DNA from: Variovorax sp.
Lineage (GTDB): Bacteria > Pseudomonadota > Gammaproteobacteria > Burkholderiales > Burkholderiaceae_C
Direction: 5' to 3'
Assembly (NCBI GenBank): GCA_031418715.1
Contig: JANOJL010000003.1
Span: 58,201 to 122,200 of the forward strand
Length of the DNA stretch: 64,000 nucleotides
Below, piece by piece: positions 38,485-59,550 of this stretch. Each line of letters opens with the position of its first letter. The stretch's first letter is position 1. The notes under the pieces were generated by a model that was not told where the DNA came from, made no database searches, and saw only the letters and a program-made list of their open reading frames with translations. The position numbers and the translations under genes were made by a program.

Positions 38485-38492
38485 GAGAATTT

Positions 38493-38560
38493 ATGCTACG
38501 AATTAGTGAGCACTCTGCGCATATTCTATAAGGGGGATAGGGTGATTTTGTTTAAAAATT
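38493..38560 (+). repeat. Family-A repeat, copy 10
   Basis: atgctacgaattagtgagcactctgcgcatattctataagggggatagggtgattttgtttaaaaatt. The tail abuts or overlaps the era stop. Confidence 0.8.
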
Positions 38561-39731
38561 ACTCATACCCGAAGCTTTTCACCCGCTCCGCGTTATCTGC
38601 CCAGCCGCCCTGCACTTTGACCCAGAGCTGGAGGAAGACTTTGGCGTCCATCAGGCGCTCTAGCTCTTGGCGGGCTTCGGTGCCCATGCGCTTGAGGCCT
38701 TCGCCCCCTGCGCCGATCACCATGGCTTTGTGGGAGTCGCGCTCGACAATGATGGTGGCGGCGATTTTGACGAAACGACCGACCGTTTTACCGGGCTCTT
38801 CGGTGAATTTATCAATGACTACGGTGCTGGTGTAGGGCAGCTCATCGCCAGTGAAGCGAAAGAGCTTTTCGCGCACGATTTCGCCCGCCATGAAGCGCTC
38901 GGATTTGTCGGTGATGTCGTCTGCAGCATGAATCCAAGGCTGCTCGGGCAGGTATTTTTCGCAGATCACGAGCAGGCGCTCGATGTCTTTTTTCTGCTTG
39001 GCGCTCATGGGGATGATTTCAGCAAACTGGATGGTTTTGACGACCTCAAGGTCTTCCGCGCTGAACTCTGTCGTGTCGATACCTTCTGCCTCTGTATTTG
39101 CGCCCTCTTCGCCATCTTCTGCTGGCTTGGCATCGCTCTGCACTTTGGGCTCACTGCTGCGCTCTGTGGCAGGCTCGAATTTGATCGCGCCCATGCCTTT
39201 GGCATGCACCTCTTGCAACCAAGGCGCAATATCAGCGCGGCGGTTGACGGTATCGAGCTTGTTCGCCACGAGGATCACCGGCACGCCTTTGGCTTGCTTG
39301 CCCAAGAGCGAAAGCACCTTGGCATCCGCGCCGGACAAGCGCCCGGCTTCGACGACGAGCAAGATCAAATCCACGCCACTCACAGCGCCGCTGACGGTTT
39401 TATTCAGCGAGCGATTGAGCGCTGTGCCGTGGCGCGTTTGGAAACCGGGCGTGTCTGCAAAGACAAATTGCGCAGCGCCTTGTGTACGAATGCCCAGGAT
39501 GCGGTGGCGCGTGGTTTGCGCTTTACGCGAAGTGATGCTAACTTTCTGGCCAACGAGGGCGTTGAGTAATGTCGATTTGCCGACGTTGGGTTTACCAACG
39601 ATGGCGATCAAGCCACAACGCTTGGCAACGCCATCAAGAGCCGAAGCGACTGGCGCAGAATCCGCAGACTTCTGGAAAAACGCATCCAATAGTGGATCGC
39701 TCGGAGCGTTGTTAGGGATAGATTTTTTCAT
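38559..39731 (-). CDS. era: GTPase Era (with ~55-aa acidic insertion in the G domain and a long N-terminus)
   Basis: G1 [10 protein letters not shown]3 DTPG, G4 NKLD, G5 SAK and a KH domain ([19 protein letters not shown]). The insertion [55 protein letters not shown] lies between G4 and G5. Confidence 0.92.
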
Positions 39732-39789
39732 GCTTTTTAGGCCATTTGCCGTTATAAAATATGCATTGTTTGCTATCTAATAAATAGCA
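39722..39789 (-). repeat. Family-A repeat, copy 11
   Basis: Reverse complement: tgctatttattagatagcaaacaatgcatattttataacggcaaatggcctaaaaagcATGaaaaaat. The predicted era ATG lies inside the tail. Confidence 0.8.
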
Positions 39790-39797
39790 AAAAAAGG

Positions 39798-40493
39798 TCA
39801 GGCTACTGTCTTCAGTAACTTGAGCATCGCTGTTGCAGCTTCTTGCTCAGCCGCTCGACGCGAACCGCCAAAGCCCCGCGCCTCGCGCTGCATTTGCTCG
39901 ATGGCGCACTGCACTTCAAAGTTTTGCCGATGTGCAGCGCCAGTGATACTCATCACGTTGTAGGCCGGTAGCTTGAGCTTTTTACCTTGCAACAGCTCTT
40001 GCAGCTCGGTTTTAGCATCTTTGGCTGCGGCGGGCATCTCTGGATTGATTTCGACCTTGTCAAACAATCGGTGCACCAAGCTGGCGGCTTTTTCAAAACC
40101 AGCATCGAGATAGACCGCACCAATCACCGCTTCCAGCGCGTCCGCAAGAATAGAAGGCCGCTTGCTGCCACCTGAGCGCAGCTCACCCTCGCCTAAGCGA
40201 AGCAGGTTGCCCAGGTGTAGCTCTTGGGCAATTTTGTGCAAGGTGTCTTGCTTAACCAAATTGGCTCGAACACGCGAGAGCTCGCCTTCTTGCAAGGTGC
40301 CCAAAGCTTGGAAAAGCATGCCTGAGACAGCCAAATTCAAAACAGAGTCGCCCAAAAACTCCAAGCGCTCGTTGTGGTCAGCACTGAAACTTCGGTGCGT
40401 CAGCGCCTGTGCGAGGAGGACAGGCTTGAGAAACTCATACTGCAGGCGTTTCTGGAGCTGTTGTACGTCATCACTCAAGGGAGTAGCCCGCAA
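39798..40493 (-). CDS. rnc: Ribonuclease III
   Basis: RNase III signature [11 protein letters not shown] plus a C-terminal dsRBD. Confidence 0.95.
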
Positions 40494-40508
40494 AAAAACG
40501 GCACGGCA

Positions 40509-40856
40509 TCACTTGTCGCTGCTGCCTGCATACTTGAGCAGCAAATAAGCGGGGCCGCCCAAAGGAATTTCTTTGTTGTAAGCAAAGCTGACGACCACTT
40601 TGTCGCCGTTTTTTGTGACTTCAATATCTTTAGGGCCAATCGCTTTGAAATCATCGATGTTTTGCGCCTTGTCGAAGGCCGTGCGAATTTCGGGAATCGT
40701 ACCGCCTGAAGCTGCCACTTTCTTGACAGCTTTGACGATTGCAAAGTATTCAAGCACCGTAGGAAATACCTGCGCACCCACCACGCCCGTAAACGCCAGC
40801 ACGATGCCAACAAAAAGCAAGCCGACCAGAGAGAGACCGCGTTGTTGAGTTTTCAT
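40509..40856 (-). CDS. DUF4845-like small membrane-anchored protein
   Basis: An N-terminal TM segment (GLSLVGLLFVGIVLAFTGVV). It sits in the conserved position between lepB and rnc in Burkholderiales. Confidence 0.6.
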   Translation of the reverse strand: MKTQQRGLSLVGLLFVGIVLAFTGVVGAQVFPTVLEYFAIVKAVKKVAASGGTIPEIRTAFDKAQNIDDFKAIGPKDIEVTKNGDKVVVSFAYNKEIPLGGPAYLLLKYAGSSDK

Positions 40857-40880
40857 TGGATGCCTTGTAAGTGTAAAGAG

Positions 40881-41885
40881 TCAATCAAACGAACCAATTC
40901 TGCGTAGATTACCAAAATTCATCCACACATAAAAGGCTTTGCCTACGATATTTTGCTCTGGTACGAAGCCCCAGTAGCGAGAATCTTGAGAATTATCACG
41001 GTTGTCGCCCATCATGAAGTAATGCCCAGCGGGCACTTTGCAGCTTACGCCTTCAATGCTGTAGTTGCAATTTTCAAAAAATGGAAACTGCATCAGTGGC
41101 GTGTTGCCCATGCCAGAGTTTGGGTAGATCAGCAGCTTATGCGGCTTGTCGTAGCCGGGGAGTTTCTCTTCAAACTGCGGAATGTAGGTTGTTTGCGTTT
41201 CATCAAAAAACTCGGGCAACACGGTACGTGGCACGAGTTGCCCGTTGATGCGCAACTCTTTGTTGGTGTAGCTCACCTGATCCCCCGGCAGCCCGATCAC
41301 ACGCTTGATGTAGTCCACATTCGGGTTGGGAGGATAGCGAAACACCATGGCATCCCCGCGCTGCGGGTTGTTCACATCGATGATTTTTTTGTTGATCACT
41401 GGCAGGCGCACACCGTAGGTGAATTTGTTCACCAAAATCAAATCCCCAATATGCAGCGTTGGAATCATCGAACCCGTGGGAATTTTGAAAGGTTCAAACA
41501 AAAACGAACGCAGCAAAAACACAATGCAAATCACGGGGAAAAGCCCTGCCGTCCAGTCCAACCACCAAGGCTGCTGCAACACCACGTCTTTCGAAGCGAC
41601 CAGCTCTTGATGGTGCATCTCTGTTTTGCTGATGCCCATTTTGGCCAACTCGGCTTGACGCGCAATGGCCTGCTCTTCAATCGCGGTCGCAGCTTGGTTA
41701 CGTTCGGGAAGGAAAATAAATCTTTCTAAGAGCCAGTAAATGCCTGTGGTGATAGTGGCGATGAACAAGATCAACGAGAAGTTACTCTCCACAGCATTGA
41801 AATACCAAGCCACGCAATAAGCTACAAACGCGCCGAGTACACCGGCTGTGATGCCGGGCATGAATTTCGTCAAAGAGTTGGACAT
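40881..41885 (-). CDS. lepB: Signal peptidase I
   Basis: Catalytic Ser box PTGSMIPTL, Lys box VNKF/YIKRV and GDNRDNSQDSRYWGFV. Confidence 0.95.
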   Translation of the reverse strand: MSNSLTKFMPGITAGVLGAFVAYCVAWYFNAVESNFSLILFIATITTGIYWLLERFIFLPERNQAATAIEEQAIARQAELAKMGISKTEMHHQELVASKDVVLQQPWWLDWTAGLFPVICIVFLLRSFLFEPFKIPTGSMIPTLHIGDLILVNKFTYGVRLPVINKKIIDVNNPQRGDAMVFRYPPNPNVDYIKRVIGLPGDQVSYTNKELRINGQLVPRTVLPEFFDETQTTYIPQFEEKLPGYDKPHKLLIYPNSGMGNTPLMQFPFFENCNYSIEGVSCKVPAGHYFMMGDNRDNSQDSRYWGFVPEQNIVGKAFYVWMNFGNLRRIGSFD

Positions 41886-41889
41886 GCGA

Positions 41890-43716
<1,827 letters not shown>

Positions 43717-43793
43717 CAACAAAATTCTCAAACTAATTCTTTAAGTGCTTGATCCGTATGACACTTGCATCAAAGCAATTCACGACGCGCAAG

Positions 43794-44363: not shown

Positions 44364-45437
44364 ATGCTAAAACCGCGCTCCACCCTCGCCTCACTCAAGC
44401 TGCGCAGCACCTTTGCCGTGCTGATCACTGCGCTGTGCACAAGCCTCGCGCATGCAGCAAGCCCTGCTGCACCTGCGGGCAACTCAGGCGCGAGTGCGCA
44501 AGACACCATCAACGCACTTTCTAAAGCGCAGATGGCTGTGGTGGGTGTGCAAGTCACCGCCGCAGAAGGCGCTCGTTCAGCAGAAACGCTTGGCAAGCAA
44601 CGCTCTGGCTCGGGTGTGGTGATTGGCGCAGATGGTTTGGTGGTCACCATTGGTTATTTGATTCTGGAAGCCGACAACATCCAAATCACGACCACGGACA
44701 AGAAAACAGTACCCGCTCGCGTGGTGGCCTACGATTTGGCCACTGGCTTTGGTCTGATTCGCCCTGTGGTGCCCTTGCGCGGCATCGCCCCAGTCTCATT
44801 GGGCGGCAGTACCGATATCAAAACAGGCGAAGCCTTGATGGCCAGCACTGGCGCGTCACCTGACGACGATGCTGATGTCAACATGACCCAACTCGTCAGC
44901 AAACGCGCCTTTTCCGGCTACTGGGAATATCACATCGAGAGCGCCCTCTTCACCAGCCCGCCGATGCAAAACCACTCCGGCGCACCGCTGTTCAACCAAA
45001 AAGGCGAGCTTCTGGGCATTGGCAGCCTGTTTGTGATGGATGCGATGGGTCAAAATGTGCGCTTGCCTGGCAACATGTTTGTTCCGGTTGATCTGCTCAA
45101 GCCGATCATGGCTGAAATGCTGCAAAACGGCAGCAGCAAACTCTCCAAGCGCCCTTGGATTGGCTTGACCTCTAGCGAGCAAGGTGGCCGCGTACAAATC
45201 ATGCGCGTCAACAAAGATGGCCCAGCGCAGGCAGCAGGTTTGCAGCCCGGAGACGTGGTGCTCGCGGTTGACGATGCGAAGGTCGCCAACCTAGAAACTT
45301 TTTATAAAAAAATCTGGGATCGAGCCACCCCCGAAGCTGAAATCAAGCTCACCGTGTTGCAAGGCGCAGATTTGAAAACCATTCTGCTCAAACCCGTGGA
45401 TCGCATGAGCACGATGATGAAGCCTGCGGGGATTTGA
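44364..45437 (+). CDS. S1C (HtrA-like) trypsin-fold protein with one PDZ domain; canonical His motif not evident
   Basis: Signal peptide, then GSGVVIGADGLVVTIGYLI where HtrA has TNxHV. The Asp box YDLATGFGLI and Ser box NHSGAPL are present. A PDZ domain follows (GLQPGDVVLAVDD). Confidence 0.7.
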   Translation: MLKPRSTLASLKLRSTFAVLITALCTSLAHAASPAAPAGNSGASAQDTINALSKAQMAVVGVQVTAAEGARSAETLGKQRSGSGVVIGADGLVVTIGYLILEADNIQITTTDKKTVPARVVAYDLATGFGLIRPVVPLRGIAPVSLGGSTDIKTGEALMASTGASPDDDADVNMTQLVSKRAFSGYWEYHIESALFTSPPMQNHSGAPLFNQKGELLGIGSLFVMDAMGQNVRLPGNMFVPVDLLKPIMAEMLQNGSSKLSKRPWIGLTSSEQGGRVQIMRVNKDGPAQAAGLQPGDVVLAVDDAKVANLETFYKKIWDRATPEAEIKLTVLQGADLKTILLKPVDRMSTMMKPAGI

Positions 45438-45730
45438 ATTTACTAGCCTGAACGGCATGGACACGCACGCACTACAAGCCGCTCGGTAAAAACTTAGCAT
45501 TTGGCGAGATCGACATTTGCGGCGCAGATGGCAAAAGCGTGTGTCGGGCGACGACGACTTACGCGTTGCTTTAAATCCCTGAGAAGCTTTCGGGCTGAGC
45601 CTTCGAAGCCTCTTTCTCATGGCCTGCCCCCCTCACGCCGCCCGCGCGCCAAATCGGCAAGCTGAGGCCTAGGCTCGTGCCTATGACTGCGCAGGCTGTG
45701 AACAGCGCAGCAACCTCCAATGCGATCCCA

Positions 45731-45795
45731 ATTTTTAAGCCAAATCGACTTATTCCCGTTATAGAATATGCGCTGATAGCTATACTATTGATAGT
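45731..45795 (-). repeat. Family-A repeat, copy 12
   Basis: Reverse complement: ctatcaatagtatagctatcagcgcatattctataacgggaataagtcgatttggcttaaaaat. Confidence 0.85.
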
Positions 45796-46186
45796 AAAAG
45801 ACGGCGAAGTGGTCAAGCGAAGTTGCGTGTGTACAGCAGCTCTGATGTGACATGGCGGAGAGAATGTCACGCGATGACAGGCTAGCCGTCCACACGACAG
45901 GTTACAGGTAGTTAGGCTTCAGTCTTTTCATTGAGTTTTGCCACCAGTAATTCTTAAGTATTCAAAAACACCCTTCGTGCTTGAATGGTCTCTCAAATTA
46001 TTGGAAAAGAACACGAAAAGGGGATTCCCTCTTGCCTCCAATTCGTTTCTAATGACGTTAATGAGTGTGCAGGTGCATTGAGTGTTATTTTTTGCACTAT
46101 CGCAAGATGCCAAGCTGCCCAGCTTTTATTTAAGTTTCAAGCCGTCGAGGAGTGTTATGCGTTATCACATCGAAGTTTCAAAAAAA

Positions 46187-47521
46187 ATGAAGCCCCAGCC
46201 CCATCTGCTGGCGATTGCAACGGCCATGGTCGTTGCGGGTCTATTCAGCGCCCCGGCACAGGCTGTGGTCGATGCACCCGTGCGCGAAGCCATGGAAGCG
46301 GTGAACGCCAAACAAGCGCAGAAAGCGTTTGATCTGCTTTCGCCGTTGGAAGGTACGCGCGCAGGCGATCCTGATTTCGACAGCGCCTTAGGCATTGCTG
46401 CCAATGACGTCGGTCAGTTCGCTCGAGCCATCTTCGCGCTAGAGCGCGTTCTTGCGGTACAGCCCAACAACAACCGAGCGCGTGCAGAGCTTGCAAGAGC
46501 CATGTTTGCCGTGGGCGATACCGCCAATGCTCGCAAGTTGTTGCAAGAAACCAAAGAGCAAGGTGTGCCAGACAGCGTTGGCCGCACCATTGATGAGTTT
46601 TTGCAGGCGATTGACAAGGTAGACGAAGCGGGTCGCTCTTCAATGAAGTTGCATCTGGAAGCTGGCATCGGGTATGACTCGAATGTGAACAGTGGTCCAT
46701 CGAGCAACAGTTTTGCCGTTCCTTTGTTTGGCGGTGCGGTATTTACGCTTTTGCCTGCTGCACAAAAAACCGATGCATCCTATCTGCACTTAGGCGCAGG
46801 TGTTTCTGGCCGAGCCAACTTAGCCCCACGCTGGTCTTTCATTGGTAATGCGAGCGCCAGCATCCGCAAGCATGGCAACAGCGCCAGCGCCTTCAACATC
46901 GATCAGATCGACGGCAGCGTAGGCGCGAGTTATCGCGAAGAGCGCAACGAGTTCTCTGGCGTGTTCAACCTTGGCCAAACCGCGATCGGTGGCAGCACAC
47001 TGCGCCAAATCACGGGTCTGACTGGCGAATGGACGCATCGCCCAGACGGCACACGGCAATGGGGCACCTATTTACAACTGTCCAACCTCGACTACCCATC
47101 ACAACCCATTCGAGATGCGCGCCGCACAGTGCTCGGCACCAGTTATGCTCAGCAGCTCAAGAGCGGCATGATTTATTATGTGGGCGGCTATGTCGGGCAA
47201 GAAAGCGAGAAAAGTGCATTGGCGCCACACCTCGGGCACAAGCTTTCAGGACTGCGTGCGGGTTTCCAGATGCCCATCCATCCACAATGGAGCATCTATA
47301 CGTCTGCTGCAATTGAAAGTCGCAACTACGGTGGCCTCGAACCACTTTTTCTGATCACTCGGCGTGACATTCAATTCGATCTGAGCATAGGCGCCTCTTG
47401 GAAAATGAGCGAGAACTGGAATATCAAACCCCAGATCAATTTCAATCGCAGCGACTCCAACATCCCCACCAACGACAGCAGCAAATCCAGCGTGAGCGTC
47501 ATTGCTCGCCGTGAGTTTTAA
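46187..47521 (+). CDS. Slam-like outer-membrane protein (periplasmic TPR region + DUF560-type beta-barrel)
   Basis: Signal peptide MKPQPHLLAIATAMVVAGLFSAPAQA. A TPR-like helical region spans ~30-170. Alternating beta-strand segments follow, starting LHLEAGIGYDSNVNSGP and ending in an aromatic terminus (...ARREF). The size and architecture match surface lipoprotein assembly modifier proteins. Confidence 0.65.
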   Translation: MKPQPHLLAIATAMVVAGLFSAPAQAVVDAPVREAMEAVNAKQAQKAFDLLSPLEGTRAGDPDFDSALGIAANDVGQFARAIFALERVLAVQPNNNRARAELARAMFAVGDTANARKLLQETKEQGVPDSVGRTIDEFLQAIDKVDEAGRSSMKLHLEAGIGYDSNVNSGPSSNSFAVPLFGGAVFTLLPAAQKTDASYLHLGAGVSGRANLAPRWSFIGNASASIRKHGNSASAFNIDQIDGSVGASYREERNEFSGVFNLGQTAIGGSTLRQITGLTGEWTHRPDGTRQWGTYLQLSNLDYPSQPIRDARRTVLGTSYAQQLKSGMIYYVGGYVGQESEKSALAPHLGHKLSGLRAGFQMPIHPQWSIYTSAAIESRNYGGLEPLFLITRRDIQFDLSIGASWKMSENWNIKPQINFNRSDSNIPTNDSSKSSVSVIARREF

Positions 47522-47543
47522 ATTCAGTCCAGGAGAACATATC

Positions 47544-49811
47544 ATGCGCCGCACTCCCAGTCTTCAGACCACCGCCCTCATTGCCGCTTTGGCGAGTATT
47601 TATCCGTTGCAAGTGTTTGCCAATGCTGGCGTGACGCAATTTAGCATTGGAGATGTGAGCGTCCAGCGCTCCGCTGCAAGCACTCCCTTGGCAAACGGCA
47701 GCCGCATCGACAGTGGTGATCTGATCACCACCGGCAGTTCTGGTCGCACCCAATTGCGCTTCACAGACGGCGGCATGGTCTCGCTGCAGCCCAACTCGCA
47801 ATTCAAAATCACCAGCTACAGCGATGCGAGTGCGGGTAAGCAAGACAGCTTCTTGGTAGATCTCGCTCGCGGAGGTATGCGCGCCCTCACCGGCCTGATC
47901 GGCAAACGCAATCGCGATAACTACAAAGTCACCACCACCACCGCCACTATCGGCATCCGTGGCTCAGGCTTTTCTATGGCCTACAACCCCGATGGCACTC
48001 TAGGCGTGACCACCGAGCAAGATGCCATTGAAGTTTGCACGCAAGCGGGCTGTATCGGCCTTAACTTAGGTGAATCTGCCCTCGTCACTTCCGCCAACGC
48101 CCTACCCACCCGCACCAACCAACGTGCGCACTGGAATCCACCCAACCCACGCCGCCTCATCACGGCACGCAACGATGACACCGATAACGAAGGTAGAAAC
48201 AAATACATCGTCAATACAGGTTTGGCCTTCACTGGCGCTGGTATCGGCGAGTCCGGAGGCGATCCTCGTGTATTTTTAAACGGCGCGGCTGTACGAGACG
48301 CCAATGGCAACATCGTCGGCTATTTAGGCCGCAACAATGACCGCGCACAAGGTGGTACGGCAACTGAATTTGAAAACGGAACAACCGGAACTCAAGCTGG
48401 AGGCGACTTGATGATTCTCGGCTCTTGGGAAAACGTCAGCTGGGGCGGTACCAGCCCTGGCACGCTATCGCAATCGGGTTTTGTGCTTGGGCAACCGACC
48501 CCCGAGTCAGCATTTTCTACTGCTGTAGATCGCAGAGCTCGGTATGACCTAACCATCGGCACGCCCGTTTATTCCTCAAATGGAGTCTCAGGAATGCTGC
48601 TGAGTTCAAGCAACGTGATTGTCGATTTCAGAAGTGCCTTTGGTGCGATGGACATCAATTTGGATGTCAGGATGCCCTCTGGCTTTGAAATACTCGACGG
48701 TCAATCTTTGCCTCCCCCCTTAGCCCAAGATTACAACCTGCGCGGCTCTGCTACAGCTACCAGCGCAGGCTTTTCCAGTGTATTAGGCGTCACGGCAGTG
48801 GGTAGAGGATATGAAAACCCGATTGTAGAAATTGCAGGGCCCGCGAACACCGCAGGGACAGGCTCTGTTACGGGCTTCTTCGGCGGCCCACAAGCAGGCA
48901 CAATTGGCTTGAGTTACAACGCGACTATTGGCAGCAATGGATACAACAGCTCAATCGCGGGCGCAGGTATATTCACACGAGGCAGTGGATCGAGCACTAT
49001 TGCCCAAGAGACTGTCGCGTTGCCAGCTTCCGGCCCTTTCTCTAGTCAATTGCACGCCTTGGATGGCTCGGACTTCTTCTCTGTGGATGCCGGTGAAGGC
49101 AACAGTGTTTTCTTTCCTAGCTCTTCATGCTGCTCATCTAGCTCGACAGGCAGCGTAGTTTTCTCAGGAACTCAGCTGCGCAGCTGGGAGAGCGGATCGA
49201 TTGGTTTTAACGAGGGAAATATAAGTGCTTCCCCCGCTCCTTCAGGCGCTTCTGTCCTACAGTATGGCGCTTTTGGCCAGCCGACTGATAGCCATTTTTT
49301 AGGTTGGGGAGCTTGGCAAACAGGCGTTACAGAGAAATTGAATGTCAACAGCGGATATTCTCAAAATCTAACGGCTGTGCATTATGTGATTGGTAAGCCT
49401 AGTTACAACAGTGATGGTTGGACAGGTTCAGCCACCTACAGTTTCATCGGAGGCACGAATCCCACGGCGACCAACTCCAGTGGCACGGCTGTTGGCAATA
49501 TCTCTTCCGCAAGCAATCTGGCAATTAACTTTGGTTCCAGTCCAACAGTCACAGCTAATATATTTCTGTCCTTCAATGGCACACCTGTAACGATCAATCA
49601 AACAGGTACTTTGGGTGGCAACTCTGGCTCCTCTGGAAACATTTATTCAACTGGCAATTCAGCCGACGGCCAGTTTTCTGGCATTCTGTCTGGCAGCCAA
49701 GCAGAACGAGCCGGCATTGTTTACGGCATCAACCACAGCACATTAGGAGCGGTTCGAGGAGCGGCAGCGTTTCAAACAGCCACACCTCCATCAAGAAATA
49801 ATTTGAATTAA
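47544..49811 (+). CDS. Secreted FecR-domain protein with two TbpB-like (handle/8-strand barrel) modules; S/T/G-rich
   Basis: AGGAGA lies upstream of the ATG. The SPase I-type signal peptide (...PLQVFA-NAG) has no lipobox. A FecR-like domain is present (GDVSVQR...GDLITTGSSGRTQLRFTDGGMVSLQPNSQF...ATIGIRGSGF). Two segments end in the TbpB/fHbp-type barrel pattern: GSVTGFFGGPQAGTIGLSY...IAGAGIFTR and GQFSGILSGSQAERAGIVYGI...VRGAAAFQ. Confidence 0.6.
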   Translation: MRRTPSLQTTALIAALASIYPLQVFANAGVTQFSIGDVSVQRSAASTPLANGSRIDSGDLITTGSSGRTQLRFTDGGMVSLQPNSQFKITSYSDASAGKQDSFLVDLARGGMRALTGLIGKRNRDNYKVTTTTATIGIRGSGFSMAYNPDGTLGVTTEQDAIEVCTQAGCIGLNLGESALVTSANALPTRTNQRAHWNPPNPRRLITARNDDTDNEGRNKYIVNTGLAFTGAGIGESGGDPRVFLNGAAVRDANGNIVGYLGRNNDRAQGGTATEFENGTTGTQAGGDLMILGSWENVSWGGTSPGTLSQSGFVLGQPTPESAFSTAVDRRARYDLTIGTPVYSSNGVSGMLLSSSNVIVDFRSAFGAMDINLDVRMPSGFEILDGQSLPPPLAQDYNLRGSATATSAGFSSVLGVTAVGRGYENPIVEIAGPANTAGTGSVTGFFGGPQAGTIGLSYNATIGSNGYNSSIAGAGIFTRGSGSSTIAQETVALPASGPFSSQLHALDGSDFFSVDAGEGNSVFFPSSSCCSSSSTGSVVFSGTQLRSWESGSIGFNEGNISASPAPSGASVLQYGAFGQPTDSHFLGWGAWQTGVTEKLNVNSGYSQNLTAVHYVIGKPSYNSDGWTGSATYSFIGGTNPTATNSSGTAVGNISSASNLAINFGSSPTVTANIFLSFNGTPVTINQTGTLGGNSGSSGNIYSTGNSADGQFSGILSGSQAERAGIVYGINHSTLGAVRGAAAFQTATPPSRNNLN

Positions 49812-49854: not shown

Positions 49855-51963
49855 TTGTTTTCTTTAGAACAGCAATTCACACAAGCCAAGGATTTCCAGC
49901 AAGCAGGTCATTTTGCTGAGGCCTTGGCTTTATTTGGCATACTCGCCAAAAATAACCCCCACCACGCTAGATTTCAGTTCGAACAAGGCAACTTATTGAA
50001 TGCTTTGGCTCATTCTGAGCAGGCCTTAGATTGCTATACCAAGGCTCTTGCCTTGGATGAGAATTTTCCCGGCCTCAAAAACAATCTGGGCAACACTTGG
50101 CTAGATCTAGGTCAGCCTGCCAAAGCATTGCAATGTTTTGATGAAATTTTGGCGAAGCAACCGCAAGATGCCAATGCCTTGAATAACCGAGGCACGGCAC
50201 TTCGCGACCTCAAGCAACCAGAATTGGCATTGGTCAGTTATGAAAAAGCTCTAGCCATTGCGCCGAACAACGTCGAAGCGTTGAACAATCACGGAAATCA
50301 GTTGCTAGAACTCAATCAGCCGGAGCAAGCACTCAAGAGCTATCAGCGCGCTTACCGACTATCACCTCATTTTCACATCACCCATCGTAATGCTGCGAGA
50401 GCATTGCTAGCGATTCATCGCCCCAATGAGGCCATGAAGTTGTTGGACCTTGCTCTTCAAACACTGTCTCAAGATGCGTTCACTTGGATGTATCGTGGGG
50501 ATGCATTGCGCCAAATGCAGCGCTTTGAGGAAGCCATTGCTTCCTATGAGCGTGCGCTGAGCATCCAACCTGCACTTGACTTCCTCCCGGGTCTGAAGCT
50601 TTATCTAAAAATGCAGATTTGCGATTGGAACGATTGGCCTCAGGCCATCGAAGATCTTAAAACTGCGCTCAAAGAAGGTAGGCGCTACACAGTGCCCATG
50701 CCCATGCTTGGTTTCTTGGACATTCCTGCTCTGCAACTGGCGGCTTCACATATTTATATGTCTGGCCATACCGCCCCAGTAAGCATGAAGAAAGAATCGG
50801 CGGTCTCTCCGCATTTAAGCAGCGTTAAACAGGCAACCAAGAAAATTAAATTGGGCTACTTTTCTGCTCATTTCCATGAGCACCCAACAGGCAGGCTGAT
50901 GGCTGAAATCTTTGAGCGGCATGATCGAAGTCAATTTGAAGTTTATGCATTCTCATTCGGCGTGCCTGCACGGGATTCAGTCCGTCAGAGACTCATTGCC
51001 GCATTTGATGAGTTCATCGATGTGACAACCCAAAGTGACGAGCAAGTTGTCCGGCTCTCTCAACAGATGGGTATTGACATCGCGATTGATCTTACGGGCT
51101 ACTACGATCAGTCACGACCCGGTTTATTTGCTCGCCGATGCGCACCGATTCAAGTGAGTTATTTGATCACTCCCGGCACTTTGGGCATGTCATATTGGGA
51201 TTACTTGATAGCGGATTCCGTCGTTGTTCCACCAGCGTCTTTCCCTCACTTTTCTGAGCAAATCGTACATCTACCGAGTTGCTACTTCACTTTTGATTCC
51301 AAGCAAACCATCTCCGAACGGATCTTCACACGCAAAGAACTAGGTCTACCCGATGACGGTTTTGTATTTTGCTGTTTCAATAACAGCTACAAAATCACCC
51401 CGCCAGTATTCGATATTTGGATGCGAATTCTACATAGTGCGCCAGATAGTGTGCTTTGGCTGTTTGAGTCGAATCACAGTGTTCCTCACCAGCTCAAACG
51501 AGAGGCCACTCTGAGAGGTATTGATCCAGAGAGACTCATTTTCTCCAAGGTCGCGAAACTCGATGAGCATTTAGCCAGGCAGCAATTGGCTGATTTGTTT
51601 TTAGACACATGGCCATGTAATGCGCACACCACAGCTTGTGATGCTCTATTTTCAGGTCTACCTGTGTTAACCCACCCAGGGCAATCCTTTGCGAGCAGAG
51701 TGGCAGCAAGCATGCTGACCACGCTGAACTTGCCTCAACTCATTGCTGAATCTCCTCAAGCCTATGAGTCAATGGCTCTAGAGTATGCCAATCAACCCAG
51801 TCGACTCGTCGCCATGAGAGAGCAGCTTCTTCAATCTCGCCATCATAGTCCGCTGTTCTCAGGAGCAATCAAGGCGCGCGAGCTAGAGTCTGCCTATATC
51901 GCCATGACAGAGCGACAAAGAAAAGGGCTTGATCCAGCCCATTTCCAAGTAGCGCGTTGCTAA
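49855..51963 (+). CDS. TPR-repeat protein with C-terminal GT41 (O-GlcNAc-transferase/SPINDLY-like) glycosyltransferase domain
   Basis: N-terminal TPRs (repeated ...A...Y.KAL...P....A.NN.G). The C-terminal half has KIKLGYFSAHFHEHPTGRLM, IQVSYLITPGTLGMSYWDYLIAD and FVFCCFNNSYKITPPVFDIWMRIL, typical of bacterial OGT-like enzymes. No signal peptide. TTG start per the track. Confidence 0.75.
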   Translation: MFSLEQQFTQAKDFQQAGHFAEALALFGILAKNNPHHARFQFEQGNLLNALAHSEQALDCYTKALALDENFPGLKNNLGNTWLDLGQPAKALQCFDEILAKQPQDANALNNRGTALRDLKQPELALVSYEKALAIAPNNVEALNNHGNQLLELNQPEQALKSYQRAYRLSPHFHITHRNAARALLAIHRPNEAMKLLDLALQTLSQDAFTWMYRGDALRQMQRFEEAIASYERALSIQPALDFLPGLKLYLKMQICDWNDWPQAIEDLKTALKEGRRYTVPMPMLGFLDIPALQLAASHIYMSGHTAPVSMKKESAVSPHLSSVKQATKKIKLGYFSAHFHEHPTGRLMAEIFERHDRSQFEVYAFSFGVPARDSVRQRLIAAFDEFIDVTTQSDEQVVRLSQQMGIDIAIDLTGYYDQSRPGLFARRCAPIQVSYLITPGTLGMSYWDYLIADSVVVPPASFPHFSEQIVHLPSCYFTFDSKQTISERIFTRKELGLPDDGFVFCCFNNSYKITPPVFDIWMRILHSAPDSVLWLFESNHSVPHQLKREATLRGIDPERLIFSKVAKLDEHLARQQLADLFLDTWPCNAHTTACDALFSGLPVLTHPGQSFASRVAASMLTTLNLPQLIAESPQAYESMALEYANQPSRLVAMREQLLQSRHHSPLFSGAIKARELESAYIAMTERQRKGLDPAHFQVARC

Positions 51964-52031: not shown

Positions 52032-54800
52032 TCAATGCGCCTGATCCCAATTCGCTCCGACACCCACTTCCGCCAGCAGCGGCACTTTGAGCTGCGCGAC
52101 GCTGGCCATGAGGCGGGGGATTTCCACCTTCAACCAATCCAGCTCTGATTCGGGCACTTCAAAGACCAATTCGTCATGCACCTGCATGATCATCTTGGTT
52201 TTGAGGGCGAGTCTATCGAGCTCGCGCTGCACGGCGTTCATGCTGAGTTTGATGAGATCGGCGGCTGTGCCTTGCATCGGTGCGTTGATCGCGGCGCGCT
52301 CTGCGCCAGCACGGCGTGGGCCATTGGGGCTGTTGATCTCAGGAAGGTAGAGGCGGCGGCCAAGCACGGTTTCGACGTAGCCTTTGGCTTTGGCAGACAG
52401 GCGCGTCTCGTCCATGTATTGCTTCACACCTGCAAAGCGAGCAAAGTAACGCTCGATGTAATTCTTTGCAGCCGTGTTGTCGATGCTGAGCGCTTTGGCC
52501 AAGCCGAAAGCGCTCATGCCGTAGATCAGGCCGAAGTTGATCACCTTGGCATAGCGGCGTTGCTCGCTGCTCACATCGCTGGCGGATAAGCCGAATACTT
52601 CAGCTGCTGTGGCGCGGTGGACGTCAATGCCATCGGTAAACGCCTTGATCAGCGCTTCATCGCCGCTGATGTGCGCCATGATGCGCAGCTCGATTTGAGA
52701 GTAATCTGCGCTGGCGATCAGGCAGCCTGGAGGCGCAACGAAAGCTTCGCGCACGCGGCGGCCTTCCGCTGTTTTGACGGGGATGTTTTGCAGATTGGGG
52801 TCATTGCTCGACAAACGGCCTGTGACTGCCACTGCTTGCGCGTAATGCGTGTGCACGCGGCCTGTGCGCGGATGGGCGAGTTGGCCGAGTTTGTCGGTGT
52901 ACGTACCTTTGAGCTTGGAAATGCCTCGGTGCTCCAAGATTTTTGCGGGCAGCGGGTAATCTTCTGCGAGTTTTTCTAAGACTTCTTCGTCGGTGCTCGG
53001 TGCGCCGGTAGCGGTTTTCTTCACGATGGGCAAGCCCAGTTTGGTGAAGAAAATTTCGCCGATTTGCTTTGGAGAAGCGAGGTTAAAAGGCTGCCCGGCC
53101 AGATCATGCGCCTCAGATTCGAGCTGCATGATGCGCTGCCCTAGTTCGTGGCTCTGCGCGGCAAGCAGCTGCGCATCAATCATCACGCCGTTGCGTTCAA
53201 TGCGATACAGGCTTTCCGAACTTTCGATTTCCAGCTCATAAATCCCGCGCAGCTTCTCATTGGCCTGCAGCTTCGGCCAGAGCGCCAGATGCACATCCAG
53301 CGTTTGATCGGAATCTTCGCAGGAGTATTCAGAAGCTTTCTCAATATCGACCTGCGAGAAAGAAATCTGATGCACCCCTTTGCCGCACAGATCTTCATAG
53401 CTGATGCCACTCCGCCCCACATGCCGCTCTGCAAGGCTGGTTAAGTTATGCGGCCTATGTACTTCCAACACGTAGCTTTGCAGCATCGTGTCATGCACAT
53501 AGCCCTGCACTTCAACACCGTGGTTGGCAAACACATGACGGTCGTATTTCACATGCTGGCCAAGTTTTGGGTGTTTTGCATCTTCCAGCCAAGGCTTGAG
53601 TTTGGCGAGCACCTCGTTGATGGGCAGCTGATCTGGCGCATCGGCGTAGGTGTGGGCGAGCGGAATATAAGCCGCCTCGCCGGGCGTGATACTGAAGCTG
53701 ATGCCTACGATCTGCGCCTGCATTTCGTGCAGCGAAGTGGTTTCGGTATCTAGCGCCGTGAGCTCAGCCGCTTTGATTTTTTCATGCCAAGCATCGAAGG
53801 CTTCCCAAGTGAGGATGGTGTCGTATTTTTTATCACTCACCGCAGATACGACGGGCGCTTCCTCTGCAAACAAATCATCCATCGCTGGGGCGGGAGCGTA
53901 GGCAGCAGATTTCTTGCCCAGGCCTGCCACCAGTCCCTTGAACCCATATTTTAAGTAAAAATCGCCTAATTCCGTTGTATTATCTGCGCCAAGTGCTACT
54001 GAATTCATAGCGGGCAGGCCTTCTACATGCCCCGCGAGATCACAATCCGTTTTGATCTTCAGCAACTCGCGACCCTTTGGCAACCATTCCCGAGCCTTGC
54101 GCAAGTTCTCTCCTGCCACACCTTTGATCTCGTCAGCGTGCGCCATCAGATTCTCCAGCGAGCCGTATTCGTTCAGCCATTTCGCTGCGGTCTTGGGCCC
54201 CACTTTTTCCACACCGGGCACGTTGTCCACCGTATCGCCTACGAGGTTTTGATAGTCCAGCATCAGGCTGGGCGGCACGCCGAATTCAGTGGTCACACCG
54301 GCGATATCGCGCTTCTTGCCATTCATCGTGTCGATGATGGTGATGTGTTCGTTCACCAGTTGCGATAAATCTTTGTCGCCACTGGAGATGATCACCTCCA
54401 TGCCTTGTTCTGCACCGATCCGCGCCATCGTGCCGATCACATCATCCGCCTCCACACCCGGCACAGCCACCACCGGCCAGCCCAGCAACCGCATCACCTC
54501 ATGAATCGGCGCAATCTGGCTGCGCAGATCATCGGGCATGGGCGAGCGGTTGGCTTTGTATTCGGGATACAGCGCATCGCGGAAGGTGGGGCCGCTCGCA
54601 TCAAAAATACACACGGCATACGTTGATGGAAACTGTGTGCGAAGCGCCGCCATCATATTGATCATGCCGCGAATCGCTCCCGTGGCCGCGCTGCTCGGAT
54701 CACCGGCCACAGCGCGCAAATCGGGCATCGCATGGAAAGCGCGGTACAGGTAGCTGGAGCCATCCACGAGCAGGAGGCGGTTTTCGGGAGTTTGTGTCAT
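52032..54800 (-). CDS. polA: DNA polymerase I
   Basis: 5'-nuclease domain (LLLVDGSSYLYRAFHA), 3'-5' exonuclease domain and polymerase motifs (DYSQIELRIMAH; QVHDELVFEV). ATG 54800 chosen. Confidence 0.97.
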   Translation of the reverse strand: MTQTPENRLLLVDGSSYLYRAFHAMPDLRAVAGDPSSAATGAIRGMINMMAALRTQFPSTYAVCIFDASGPTFRDALYPEYKANRSPMPDDLRSQIAPIHEVMRLLGWPVVAVPGVEADDVIGTMARIGAEQGMEVIISSGDKDLSQLVNEHITIIDTMNGKKRDIAGVTTEFGVPPSLMLDYQNLVGDTVDNVPGVEKVGPKTAAKWLNEYGSLENLMAHADEIKGVAGENLRKAREWLPKGRELLKIKTDCDLAGHVEGLPAMNSVALGADNTTELGDFYLKYGFKGLVAGLGKKSAAYAPAPAMDDLFAEEAPVVSAVSDKKYDTILTWEAFDAWHEKIKAAELTALDTETTSLHEMQAQIVGISFSITPGEAAYIPLAHTYADAPDQLPINEVLAKLKPWLEDAKHPKLGQHVKYDRHVFANHGVEVQGYVHDTMLQSYVLEVHRPHNLTSLAERHVGRSGISYEDLCGKGVHQISFSQVDIEKASEYSCEDSDQTLDVHLALWPKLQANEKLRGIYELEIESSESLYRIERNGVMIDAQLLAAQSHELGQRIMQLESEAHDLAGQPFNLASPKQIGEIFFTKLGLPIVKKTATGAPSTDEEVLEKLAEDYPLPAKILEHRGISKLKGTYTDKLGQLAHPRTGRVHTHYAQAVAVTGRLSSNDPNLQNIPVKTAEGRRVREAFVAPPGCLIASADYSQIELRIMAHISGDEALIKAFTDGIDVHRATAAEVFGLSASDVSSEQRRYAKVINFGLIYGMSAFGLAKALSIDNTAAKNYIERYFARFAGVKQYMDETRLSAKAKGYVETVLGRRLYLPEINSPNGPRRAGAERAAINAPMQGTAADLIKLSMNAVQRELDRLALKTKMIMQVHDELVFEVPESELDWLKVEIPRLMASVAQLKVPLLAEVGVGANWDQAH

Positions 54801-54847
54801 GCCAGTATTGTCGGTAAATCTGCAAGTCGGAGGCTGAGTATTTTCTA

Positions 54848-54967
54848 GGTAACGCGAAAAACGCAAAAAAACCGCGAAAATCGCCAAAGCAAATTCATTC
54901 ACGACTCTATCTGAACTCAAAACACTTTTTGCGCTTTTCGCGTTCTTTTCGCGTTTTTCGCGTTACC
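54848..54967. repeat. Family-B A-tract inverted-repeat element (37-nt arms, 46-nt spacer)
   Basis: The left arm is ggtaacgcgaaaaacgcaaaaaaaccgcgaaaatcgc. The reverse complement of the right arm is ggtaacgcgaaaaacgcgaaaagaacgcgaaaagcgc. The arms match at 33 of 37 positions. It fills the polA/thrB divergent region. Confidence 0.85.
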
Positions 54968-56832: not shown

Positions 56833-57591
56833 ATGGAACAACACACCTTGCAAGGCCGAACGGAAGACGAAGTGCTGTGGTTTCAACGCCGCAGCTTCGC
56901 AAAAGCTGCGGCCGCGTGGACGGCCATGGGCGGCTTTGGTGCGGCGCAAGCGCAGCAACGCAGCAATATTGTGGAGTTGGTGGGTGATGCCACCGTCAAT
57001 GGCAGCCGAATGTCACCACAAAACATTTTGCAAACTGGCGACAGCGTCGAAACCGGTCCAGGCTCTAATTTGATCTTTGTCGTGGGCAATGCATCTTTTC
57101 AAGTACGCCAAAACTCGCGCCTCAGAGTCGAGCGCGGAGCATCTCTGAATGCAGTAAGCGTACTTCGATTGCTCACAGGTGCAGTGGCCAGCGTGTGGGG
57201 AAGGGGAAGCAGTCGCCAGATCGTCACGCCCACGCTGACTGCCGGCATTCGCGGCACGGGCGTGTACACCGAAGTGCGCCCACAACAAAACTTTCGCAGC
57301 TATTTCTGCAATTGCTATGGCACAGTGGACATGGCCGCAGGCGATGACAGAGCACTGTCTCGTGCAGACTATCACCAAGCTTTCTGGGGCGAGGCCGCTC
57401 CCGTCAATGGCCGCACCCTCACACCCGCAGGCGCGATCAACCACTCCGACGAAGAGCTCGAAGTGCTCGCTCGCCTGATCGGCCAACGCACCAACTGGCA
57501 AGTCATGGGCAAAAAAGGCACGAAGGATGGCAAAGGCTATATGGACGAATCGCCTAGCAATGTGCATCCTGCGATGCAGCCAACGCGCTGA
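56833..57591 (+). CDS. Tat-exported FecR-domain protein
   Basis: AGGAGA lies upstream of the ATG. Twin-arginine motif QRRSFAKAAAAWTAMGGFGAAQA. FecR-like core (GDATVNGSRM...GDSVETGPGSNLIFVVGNASFQVRQNSRL...GIRGTGVY). Confidence 0.65.
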   Translation: MEQHTLQGRTEDEVLWFQRRSFAKAAAAWTAMGGFGAAQAQQRSNIVELVGDATVNGSRMSPQNILQTGDSVETGPGSNLIFVVGNASFQVRQNSRLRVERGASLNAVSVLRLLTGAVASVWGRGSSRQIVTPTLTAGIRGTGVYTEVRPQQNFRSYFCNCYGTVDMAAGDDRALSRADYHQAFWGEAAPVNGRTLTPAGAINHSDEELEVLARLIGQRTNWQVMGKKGTKDGKGYMDESPSNVHPAMQPTR

Positions 57592-57687
57592 TCAAGGGTT
57601 ATTCCCCTGCCCCAAAGCCCGCCAGATTCGCTCTGCCGGGCTTTTTTGTTTAGACTGCACTGTGACAATAATTTCTTGGAGCATCTC

Positions 57688-59550
57688 ATGAGCCCTCTTC
57701 GCCGCAGTTTTACTCTCTCCACGCTCGCCAGCGCCGCCCTGCTCGCAGCCTGCGTCACCGCTCCCACCCATTTCGCTTACCAGCCCTTCCAGCAGCCCGA
57801 AGGCGCTTCCGGCATCACGGAAAAGCCAGGCTGGGCCACTTCTAAATTCGCCGTGGCAGCATCAAACCCATTGGCAGCAGATGCCGGATATCAAGTCTTG
57901 AGAGCAGGCGGTAGCGCAGTAGATGCCGCGATTGCCGTGCAGCTGGTGATCGGACTGGTGGAGCCGCAATCCAGCGGTATTGCAGGCGGCGCATTCCTTT
58001 TGCATCATGATGGCAAAAAGACGGAAGCTTTTGATGGCCGCGAGACCGCACCAGCCGGCGTCGATGAAAACCTTTTCATAAAAGATGGCAAGCCGATGGC
58101 CTTCTATGAAGGCGTGGTGGGCGGTCGTTCGGTAGGGGTACCTGGCACGATGCGCATGCTGGAGTTGGCGCACAAACAGCATGGCAAGTTACCATGGGCG
58201 AAATTGTTTGAGCCTGCGATTGCCTTGGCCGAAGGCGGCTTCAAAGTGAGCCCGCGTCTGAATACGTTGGTGAAAGCCGATGCGCATCTGAAGAAAGACC
58301 CAGTTGCAACGGCCTACTTCTTCAAGCCAGACGGCGATGCACGCGATGTAGGCTTTAACCTGCGCAACCAAGCCTATGCGGACGTTCTCAAACGCCTAGC
58401 TGCCGAGGGCAGCAAAGCCCTGCACGAAGGCGCAATTGCCCAAGCGATTGTGAGCAAAGTTCAAGGCCACAAAGAGAATCCCGGCAAGCTCACCATGGCA
58501 GATATGGCGGGCTATCAGCCTAAAAAGCGAGATCCGATCTGCGCTGATTACAAAGCCTCGGGGGGTAAAGATTACGTAATCTGCGGCATGCCACCGCCAT
58601 CTTCAGGGATGATCGCCGTCGGCCAAATTTTGGGTACGCTGGCGCAGACGAATGCTGGCAATATCCAGCTTGAATCCGATGGCCTGCCCGGCCCAGGCTG
58701 GATGCATCTCTACACCGAGGCATCACGCCTCGCGTTTGCAGACCGTGCCATGTATTTGGGCGATCAAGATTTTGTACCTGCACCTGACGGCAAAATCGGA
58801 GGCAATTGGAGCGCTATGCTCGCCCCCGCGTATCTAGCTCAGCGCGCCAGCTTGATCAAAGCCACCAGCATGAAGGGCGATGCCAAGCCCGGTGAGCCCT
58901 CCGCTATGCGCTCAGCCTTTGGCAAAGCCGCTGATCAGCCTGAATTCGGTACAAGTCAAATCAGCATTGTGGATGCCTACGGCAATGCCTTGGCGATGAC
59001 TTCGTCTATTGAAGATGCCTTTGGCGCACGCCAAATGGTTAATCCGGGTAACCCGACTGTAGGGGGAGGTTTCCTTCTCAACAATCAATTGACCGACTTC
59101 AACTTTAACCCCATCAGCGCCAGCGGTCAGCCCACAGCCAACCGCGTGCAACCCAACAAGCGCCCGCGCAGCTCAATGAGCCCCACCATTGTTTTTGAAA
59201 AAGCTAATGGCAAGGTGACAATGGTCGGCGGCAGTATGGGCGGAGCAATGATCATTCATTACACCTCCAAAACGATCTACGGCATGCTCAACTGGGGCAT
59301 GAATGCGCAACAAGCGATCAATTTACCCAACTTTGGCGCTACGGGCGCGCCAACAGTGCTTGAAGACAAACGCTTTCCAGCCAGCACGGTAGAAAGCCTC
59401 AAAGGTCGAGGTCACGAAGTACGCGAACAAACCTTAACGAGCGGTATCGAGGCCATTGGCCGCGCTAACTTAAACCCAGCTTCAGGCGGCGGCTCTGGTT
59501 GGTTTGGCGGCGCAGATCCACGGCGCGAAGGCGTGGTGCGCGGGGATTGA
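57688..59550 (+). CDS. ggt: Gamma-glutamyltransferase
   Basis: Lipoprotein/secretory signal (LLAAC). Ntn-hydrolase cleavage/nucleophile region GTSQISIVD. The GGSMGGAMII-type C-terminal small subunit is present. Confidence 0.93.
   Translation: MSPLRRSFTLSTLASAALLAACVTAPTHFAYQPFQQPEGASGITEKPGWATSKFAVAASNPLAADAGYQVLRAGGSAVDAAIAVQLVIGLVEPQSSGIAGGAFLLHHDGKKTEAFDGRETAPAGVDENLFIKDGKPMAFYEGVVGGRSVGVPGTMRMLELAHKQHGKLPWAKLFEPAIALAEGGFKVSPRLNTLVKADAHLKKDPVATAYFFKPDGDARDVGFNLRNQAYADVLKRLAAEGSKALHEGAIAQAIVSKVQGHKENPGKLTMADMAGYQPKKRDPICADYKASGGKDYVICGMPPPSSGMIAVGQILGTLAQTNAGNIQLESDGLPGPGWMHLYTEASRLAFADRAMYLGDQDFVPAPDGKIGGNWSAMLAPAYLAQRASLIKATSMKGDAKPGEPSAMRSAFGKAADQPEFGTSQISIVDAYGNALAMTSSIEDAFGARQMVNPGNPTVGGGFLLNNQLTDFNFNPISASGQPTANRVQPNKRPRSSMSPTIVFEKANGKVTMVGGSMGGAMIIHYTSKTIYGMLNWGMNAQQAINLPNFGATGAPTVLEDKRFPASTVESLKGRGHEVREQTLTSGIEAIGRANLNPASGGGSGWFGGADPRREGVVRGD

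Follow-up and report, generated by a model that had tools for sequence, protein, structure and literature searches.

The open reading frame at positions 47544-49811 (+) of a 64-kb stretch of Variovorax DNA (the whole stretch is referred to below as the window) encodes a protein of 755 residues, without internal stops in its translation, that is very probably a non-lipidated cargo dedicated to the type XI secretion system (T11SS; Slam/DUF560) protein encoded 22 nt upstream. In this cargo protein, a cleavable leader is followed straight away by a FecR-type head, and the head in turn by a linker and two TbpB-like lobes. Such proteins are labelled 'FecR family protein' in databases, a misleading annotation that wrongly implies iron signalling. 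Experimental work on type XI secretion has been limited to animal-associated cluster-1 systems, and the mostly water- and soil-associated clusters in the mBio survey hold no characterised proteins (Grossman 2021). The locus is a confident candidate cargo for a divergent environmental Slam. Together with its relatives it forms a predicted class of T11SS cargo, widespread in environmental Betaproteobacteria, whose new features lie outside the published cargo catalogue: a conserved FecR-fold head replacing the lipid anchor, a modular number of TbpB-like lobes (one to seven), and a tightly linked cytoplasmic glycosyltransferase pair. Two questions are thereby raised, namely how a non-lipidated Slam substrate is retained or released, and whether Slam cargo is glycosylated before export. 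The features of the locus are as follows.

46157..47521 (+), Slam/T11SS outer-membrane protein, 454 residues (PF04575 and tetratricopeptide repeats, TPR; gene call from locus L001)
47531..47536 (+), ribosome-binding site AGGAGA, 7 nt 5' of the cargo ATG (direct sequence reading)
47544..47621 (+), signal peptide, residues 1-26, with putative signal-peptidase-I cleavage after VFA (read from the sequence by eye)
47622..48125 (+), FecR-type all-beta head, residues 27-194 (PF04773, Foldseek and conservation)
47961-47966 (+), G140-S141 in the head, lining up with Gly181-Thr182 of Escherichia coli FecR (hhalign, weak statistics)
48126..48203 (+), disordered linker, residues 195-220 (low model confidence; Pro-rich family consensus)
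48204..48998 (+), lobe 1, residues 221-485, with a sheet handle (residues ~222-316) and an 8-stranded barrel (residues ~330-485)
48999..49808 (+), lobe 2, residues 486-755, with a handle (residues ~488-617) and a C-terminal 8-stranded barrel (residues ~629-745)
49119-49154 (+), SSSCCSSSSTGS loop with a vicinal Cys-Cys, residues 526-537, in the lobe-2 handle
49855..51963 (+), TPR-containing GT41 (OGT-like) glycosyltransferase without a signal peptide (Glyco_transf_41 and TPR families)

Slam neighbour and export signal

The initial annotation had raised the idea of a Slam-cargo-type scaffold. This idea is supported, and the strongest evidence for it is the adjoining Slam gene, which had been overlooked. 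In the upstream protein, a signal peptide and TPR repeats make up the N-terminal part and a DUF560 barrel the C-terminal part; the longest open reading frame begins at GTG 46082, and the 454-residue version at ATG 46157. Pfam SlipAM (PF04575) was found to match at 30.8 bits against a cut-off of 22, across model positions 7-288 of 288. The repeats were recognised by TPR_19 (E 9e-9), with a weak match to TPR_Slam (20.2 bits against a cut-off of 35.2). With PF04575 above threshold and TPR repeats in place, the protein belongs to the Slam/SlipAM group as a divergent member. Relatives of the cargo were sought in one-genome-per-species collections, and 80 loci were fetched for gene context. A Slam homologue on the same strand was found to end 16-165 nt before the first cargo gene in all 72 loci with enough upstream DNA, and P0190 (lipidated) and P0182 (1759 residues), two distant members of the lobe family described below, are encoded directly 3' of a SlipAM gene. 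A DUF560 neighbour is thus shared by the window, the 72 loci and distant lobe-family members.

Two or three tandem FecR-headed paralogues lie behind a single Slam gene at loci L023-L026, L029, L031, L039, L058 and L075, from Polaromonas and others, and an extra cargo copy lies 3' of the GT41 gene at L070 and L071. The chromosomal surroundings of the cassette are of at least two kinds: in the window and its closest relatives it adjoins polA, and in Polaromonas and Variovorax terrae it is flanked by the sox cluster and acs. It therefore travels as a unit.

The cargo N-terminus, MRRTPSLQTTALIAALASIYPLQVFA-NAG (the hyphen marks the putative cleavage site), has the charged, hydrophobic and small-residue (n-h-c) order of a signal-peptidase-I leader, so that, on reading of the sequence, a Sec-type signal peptide of the signal-peptidase-I type is present, as expected of type XI secretion cargo. 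The leader motif ...YP(L/M)Q..(F/L)A-(N/A)AG is kept in the family, and Cys is absent from it in 120 of 120 homologues; the first Cys of the window protein is residue 165. No lipobox-like motif was detected within the first 45 residues of the window protein or of any of the 120 homologues, in agreement with the initial annotation, which had noted the lack of a lipobox. The lipid anchor of a TbpB-type surface lipoprotein, a lipobox with Cys at +1, is accordingly lacking.

Two TbpB-like lobes

AlphaFold2, run on an alignment of 50 full-length homologues, gave a full model with a mean predicted local distance difference test score (pLDDT) of 84 and a predicted template-modelling score (pTM) of 0.68. 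The modelled 8-stranded barrels at residues 330-485 and 629-745 match the two segments, residues ~331-480 and ~626-746, for which a TbpB-like pattern had been noticed beforehand. In a Foldseek search of the PDB with the full model, the top 16 matches were all TbpB (best E 7.7e-8, 550-630 aligned columns), and the matches at E<=0.001 comprised 22 TbpB chains and four anti-sigma domains of the FecR/PupR type. HphA, hemophilin, the NHBA C-domain and fHbp came next, at E 1.8e-3 to 1e-2. One unrelated match, yeast fatty acid synthase 2uv8_G, was obtained at E 9.1e-4 with a probability of 0.44, and low-probability fatty-acid-synthase chains were interleaved from rank 27 onward, with more at ranks 28-44.

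Because the three domains of the full model are not rigidly superposable, its template-modelling (TM) scores are low, and lobe 2 was therefore modelled separately. For lobe 2 alone (residues 486-755), AlphaFold2 gave a pLDDT of 91.9 and a pTM of 0.91. The top 41 Foldseek matches of this C-lobe model were TbpB, hemophilin/HphA, NHBA and fHbp, with a best E of 1.3e-4 for a TbpB C-lobe and a target-normalised TM of 0.70 for NHBA. The lobe-2 barrel closes with a conserved strand, ...G.V.GAAAFQ, and is presumed to be the Slam-targeting domain. The two lobes are themselves homologous: hhalign of the family sub-alignments aligned them over 192 columns with a probability of 99.8% and E 1.2e-29, far above chance. 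This kinship is visible with profiles only, as a BLASTP comparison of the two lobes of the window protein was not significant (E 0.99). The bilobed, TbpB-like body proposed in the initial annotation is thus upheld by the predicted structure, which contains both the two handle-plus-barrel lobes of TbpB and the C-terminal 8-stranded barrel (TbpBBD or lipoprotein-C type) of type XI cargo.

The SSSCCSSSSTGS run had been placed between the lobes; its actual place is a loop within the handle of lobe 2. Only the closest relatives conserve it: the CC pair is kept in P0004 and P0011, and none is found in P0002 or the wider family. A vicinal disulfide, a metal site and a glycosylation patch are possibilities for its role.

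FecR-type head and linker

Pfam FecR (PF04773) was found to match residues 60-152 with E 1.9e-11 and 44.7 bits against a cut-off of 24, which bears out the FecR domain proposed at residues ~30-145. In the full AlphaFold2 model the head is an all-beta domain spanning residues 27-192, and its Foldseek matches are the anti-sigma domains 4m0n (BDI_1681) and 6ovk (PupR), at a target-normalised TM of 0.50. The best NCBIfam matches of the head are LipL45 (E 2.7e-9) and Lsa33 (E 0.0024), neither coming near its family cut-off. The NCBIfam LapA retention module was matched weakly (E 2e-4, 21.6 bits against a cut-off of 50), in a region that overlaps the FecR match. Across 50 homologues the head is the best-conserved region, with a mean pairwise identity of 0.69 versus 0.31-0.41 in the handles and barrels.

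Among 172 family heads, Gly is invariant at position 140, and position 141 is occupied only by Ser (135 heads) or Thr (37 heads). FecR and FoxR cleave a Gly-Thr bond by an N-O acyl shift (PMC12036975, PMC9249621). When the head was aligned by hhalign with the single E. coli FecR sequence, the two were collinear over 135 columns, with G140-S141 falling on G181-T182, but the probability was 0.1; a HMMER profile alignment to E. coli FecR aligned 21 residues only. The conservation of Gly-Ser/Thr is compatible with a conserved nucleophile, and possibly marks a putative autoproteolytic site in a secreted protein. A Cys165/Cys170 pair is present in 150 of the 172 heads.

No cytoplasmic anti-sigma (sigma-binding) domain and no STN/DUF4974 domain was detected in the window protein with Pfam, nor was a transmembrane segment beyond the cleavable leader. 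As the signalling parts of FecR are missing, 'FecR' is here the name of a fold and not of a signalling function. Leptospira Lsa33, a FecR-domain protein, has been reported to be surface exposed (PMC3444417), so that a FecR-type fold at the cell surface has precedent.

The linker between the head and lobe 1 has the consensus PTPxPRQxP and a pLDDT below 50 at residues 195-212. Its length, 20-27 residues in the 50 homologues, is nearly constant, though its sequence identity is 0.36.

A modular family of predicted cargo

The search yielded 349 relatives of the cargo, nearly all from Comamonadaceae or other Burkholderiales (Polaromonas, Variovorax, Rhodoferax, Brachymonas and Ramlibacter); their hosts are free-living Comamonadaceae of freshwater, soil and glaciers. 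Lengths of ~450-520, 710-800 and 940-1000 residues correspond to one, two and three lobes. An exhaustive search with a lobe-2 profile hidden Markov model (HMM; E<=1e-3) recovered 1403 cluster representatives with one to seven lobe matches per protein; at the N-terminus, a lipobox (P0190, P0199) can take the place of the FecR head in this wider lobe family.

The window protein is below the Pfam threshold for TbpB_B_D, and the relative P0188 is above it, so that homology to TbpB_B_D is backed via relatives rather than directly. P0188 (2808 residues, seven lobe matches) bears the same FecR head and reaches 46.9 bits against a cut-off of 26; weak TbpB_B_D matches were also found in five of 50 close homologues (best E 0.0023). 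The initial annotation had suggested that paralogues or orthologues be checked for the same fusion of a FecR domain with TbpB barrels. The fusion was found in P0188, one of the 1403 cluster representatives from the lobe-2 profile search, where the sequence establishes it; for the window protein it is established by the predicted structure.

One further protein, P0162 (1239 residues), combines TPR, a SlipAM region and three lobe matches in a single open reading frame, and is either a real Slam-cargo fusion or an artefact of a frameshift or of gene calling.

Linked glycosyltransferases

A glycosyltransferase gene begins 43 nt past the cargo stop and, given this short distance, is probably in the same operon. 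Its product matches Glyco_transf_41 (PF13844) at E 1.6e-86 and several TPR families, and it is very similar to human OGT (E 2e-102), with XcOGT matched at E 1e-73. It thus has the catalytic domain and the N-terminal TPR repeats of a GT41 enzyme. Where enough downstream DNA was available, a TPR-GT41 gene was found 3' of the cargo in 46 of 58 loci. A GT1-family glycosyltransferase gene lies between the cargo and GT41 genes in 49 related loci and is absent in the window. The window GT41 is 26% identical to the family-typical GT41 that occupies the same slot, and from this comparison it looks like a different GT41 lineage has replaced the family-typical enzyme in the window.

Gly, Ser, Thr and Asn are abundant in the cargo itself, with Ser plus Thr making up ~22%. 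In Haemophilus, HMW1C is a GT41 enzyme that modifies the secreted adhesin HMW1 in the cytoplasm before export. N-glycosylation in the manner of HMW1C was considered for the window protein and is unsupported, N-X-S/T sequons being not enriched in it or in 11 homologues.

Proposed mechanism and alternative explanations

How would such a protein reach the cell surface? By analogy with TbpB, fHbp and HphA, the cargo would be exported by Sec and cleaved by signal peptidase I. As in characterised Slam cargo, Slam would then recognise the C-terminal barrel lobe, and the lobes would cross the outer membrane, after which they would be set free in the manner of HphA or stay displayed on the cell surface. 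More tentatively, the cytoplasmic TPR-GT41 enzyme may O-glycosylate the Ser/Thr-rich cargo before export, resembling the action of HMW1C on HMW1, and in most relatives the GT1-family enzyme may also take part. The conserved head may serve a common function, such as attachment to the envelope or binding of a partner, and may undergo self-cleavage between Gly140 and Ser141, comparable to that of FecR at Gly-Thr. An exposed and variable function may reside in the lobes, which evolve fast and differ in number. In our judgement, a surface or adhesive glycoprotein is more likely than a TbpB-style nutrient shuttle, because no receptor gene is part of the system and the lobes evolve fastest.

Several observations weigh against assignment of the protein as glycosylated Slam cargo. 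Secretion, surface exposure and glycosylation are inferred from synteny and predicted fold only. The window protein did not match Pfam TbpB_B_D (PF01298, threshold 26 bits) even at E<=1, and nothing in Pfam or NCBIfam matches its residues 200-755; the 50-member family profile, searched against PDB sequences, gave nothing meaningful, the best match being an unrelated glycosidase at E 0.59. Single-lobe Foldseek E-values are modest (1e-4), and the whole-lobe TM is 0.35-0.42. The SlipAM score of 30.8 bits is low and indicates a divergent Slam, the mechanism of which could differ from the Neisseria paradigm. On the side of glycosylation, the GT41 gene is missing from 12 of the 58 loci, and the N-X-S/T sequons in the window protein number 12, compared with 11.1 +/- 2.8 in shuffled sequences, with no glycosylation motif identified. 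The correspondence of Gly-Ser to the FecR cleavage site comes from a weak alignment, and its conservation could be structural alone.

As an alternative to complete translocation, the head might stay in the periplasm as a plug or anchor, with the linker threading through or alongside the Slam barrel and the lobes tethered at the surface, much as LapE holds the N-terminal retention module of LapA; the lobes could later be freed by proteolysis or by self-cleavage at Gly140-Ser141. This arrangement is unlikely, although a number of features would suit it. The head occupies the position of the lipid anchor in classical Slam lipoproteins, with lipobox and FecR head alternating in the lobe family; it is far better conserved than the lobes, with an invariant Gly-Ser/Thr at the FecR cleavage position and a largely retained Cys165/Cys170 pair; the linker is near-constant in length despite its low identity; and the LapA retention module gives its weak, sub-threshold match. 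Against it, the LapA match is below the cut-off and shares its region with the FecR match. Cargo that stays threaded in Slam is not known, and a plug would block the translocon one-for-one, whereas two or three tandem cargo genes per Slam gene fit turnover secretion better. FecR-domain proteins can also be surface exposed, as with Lsa33 (PMC3444417). A more elaborate form of the same idea, in which the FecR head is a new holding device for anchorless Slam cargo, docking on or plugging Slam from the periplasm while the linker spans the outer membrane, the glycosylated lobes lie outside and self-cleavage at Gly140-Ser/Thr141 acts as a release or maturation step, would bring LapA-like logic to type XI secretion and is distinctly unlikely.

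Decidedly improbable as well is nutrient capture in the style of TbpB or HphA, in which a metal, haem or siderophore bound by the lobes would be passed on to a TonB-dependent receptor whose gene lies at another genomic locus. The fold does resemble those of TbpB, hemophilin and HphA, and published neighbourhood counts for cluster-1 T11SS list FecR together with TonB_C and extracytoplasmic function (ECF) sigma factors among frequently co-occurring Pfam domains. The gene neighbourhood of the present family speaks otherwise. No TonB-dependent receptor was detected in the 64-kb window or within +/-10 kb of the 80 loci by tblastn with E. coli FecA, a single query of limited sensitivity, and the sole FecI-like match in the window (8843-9268) lies ~38 kb away; within that sensitivity, the earlier observation that neither a TonB-dependent receptor nor FecI is adjacent stands. 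No TbpA-type receptor partner, as a TbpB-type lipoprotein would have, was thus found. Annotated neighbourhoods contain no receptor, ECF sigma factor or transducer, and are instead made up of glycosyltransferases, the sox cluster, and acs or polA. Furthermore, the binding site would reside in the lobes, yet conservation is lowest there and they occur in one to seven copies, and the hosts are free-living Comamonadaceae from freshwater, soil and glaciers.

The protein could also be imagined as an unsecreted periplasmic regulator of the FecR type, active in anti-sigma or cell-surface signalling and merely extended by additional beta domains. Its Pfam FecR domain and the Foldseek matches to the PupR and BDI_1681 anti-sigma domains recall such regulators, but of their parts only PF04773 is present: the cytoplasmic sigma-binding domain, the membrane anchor (no further transmembrane segment was found) and STN/DUF4974 are missing, and so is an adjacent ECF sigma factor or TonB-dependent transducer. 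Given also the invariant Slam linkage and the TbpB-fold body, this explanation is very improbable.

That beta-helical repeats, of the autotransporter, haemagglutinin or another type, make up the C-terminal segments, an outcome that had been named as contrary to the barrel assignment and for which the richness in Gly, Ser, Thr and Asn might speak, has a practically negligible probability, since no autotransporter or haemagglutinin family of Pfam or NCBIfam matched even at E<=1, the high-confidence models consist of handle-plus-barrel lobes, and the leading fold matches, nearly all of them TbpB, hemophilin/HphA, NHBA and fHbp, include no such repeats.

Comparison with known systems

What distinguishes the window cargo from the proteins that it resembles? 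TbpB, fHbp and hemophilins are verified T11SS cargo (bioRxiv 10.1101/2023.03.29.534853; PMC12282271). The best fold match is to TbpB, known from Neisseria, Haemophilus and Actinobacillus, which is likewise bilobed, with a handle and an 8-stranded barrel in each lobe, and is encoded beside the Slam protein that exports it. TbpB is, however, a lipoprotein with an N-terminal anchor peptide that partners TbpA, binds transferrin and reaches the Pfam TbpB_B_D threshold, whereas the window cargo has no lipobox, no receptor partner and no TbpB_B_D match of its own, and bears an extra FecR head.

HphA provides the precedent for non-lipidated Slam cargo (bioRxiv 10.1101/2023.03.29.534853). HphA and hemophilin share with the window cargo the lack of lipidation, a signal-peptidase-I leader, a Slam neighbour and the handle with an 8-stranded barrel (Foldseek matches 7re4, 6om5, 8glo and 8gmm). 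Unlike the window cargo, HphA is a single lobe of ~250 residues, uses a conserved His to bind haem, and its gene always lies in a cluster with that of a TonB-dependent receptor; it has neither a FecR head nor a glycosyltransferase neighbour.

Closer in overall layout are published cargo proteins with multiple TbpBBD domains, such as surface proteins of Sphingomonas and Psychrobacter and Pls-like proteins, which are also predicted T11SS cargo with two or three handle-barrel pairs and a distinct N-terminal module (PMC12282271). These cluster-1 T11SS proteins differ from the window cargo at the N-terminus, which is built of Pro-Thr/PTD repeats or of Pls repeats that are alpha-helical (PMC12282271). 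Glycosylation of T11SS cargo has been suggested for the Pls-like proteins (PMC12282271). Non-lipidated cargo (HphA), predicted multi-lobe cargo and suggested cargo glycosylation are therefore already known. By contrast, none of the ~10 cargo architectures of Grossman et al. 2025 (PMC12282271) has a FecR head; FecR is absent from the main text of that study and appears only in its supplementary Pfam co-occurrence tables, beside Sigma70 and TonB_C. FecR is likewise absent from the main text and supplements of Grossman 2021. Full-text literature searches for FecR in combination with Slam or type XI secretion returned nothing relevant, and the fusion was not described in them.

The head has two further sets of relatives. 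It shares with the FecR/PupR/FoxR regulators PF04773, the fold of the juxtamembrane beta subdomain (6ovk, 4m0n) and a Gly-Ser/Thr at a weakly aligned cleavage position; these regulators differ from the cargo in having a cytoplasmic sigma-binding domain, a membrane anchor, a transducer-contacting STN domain and sigma/transducer partners, such that the fold alone is common to both. Leptospira LipL45 and Lsa33 are its best curated NCBIfam matches, and Lsa33 is surface exposed and adhesive (PMC3444417); the two are spirochaete lipoproteins without TbpB-like lobes or Slam, and the likeness is confined to the domain.

The window locus resembles the HMW1/HMW1C locus in that a cytoplasmic GT41 enzyme is clustered with an outer-membrane translocator and the exported substrate. 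The enzymes themselves differ: HMW1C is an N-glucosyltransferase without TPR that is associated with a two-partner-secretion translocator, whereas the window enzyme is TPR-bearing and of the OGT type.

Surrounding features of the window

The remaining features flank the system on both sides.

37726-43731 (-), recO-era-rnc-lepB-lepA housekeeping block, upstream of the system
44364-45437 (+), periplasmic serine protease of the HtrA/DegP-like type with a single PDZ domain, ~700 nt 5' of the Slam gene
45438-46156, intergenic region of ~640-700 nt, 5' of the Slam gene
52032-54920 (-), polA, downstream of the system

The HtrA-like protease was considered as a part of the system and rejected, as it adjoins the Slam gene in this genome alone and in none of the 80 related loci. 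Promoter and terminator scans of the region 5' of the Slam gene were at background level, and reading of this region gave no regulatory clue, a Fur box not having been searched for. The polA gene is 94% identical to that of a Variovorax metagenome-assembled genome (MAG; L003), which places the window in Comamonadaceae.

A second FecR-type protein of 252 residues is encoded at 56833-57591 (+) of the window, with a weak FecR match (E 9.5e-4) and a twin-arginine-like leader (RRSFAKAAAAW...). Its gene is located just 5' of a gamma-glutamyltranspeptidase gene (57646-59550), and the pair was found to be syntenic in Variovorax and Brachymonas MAGs (L003-L006, L015).

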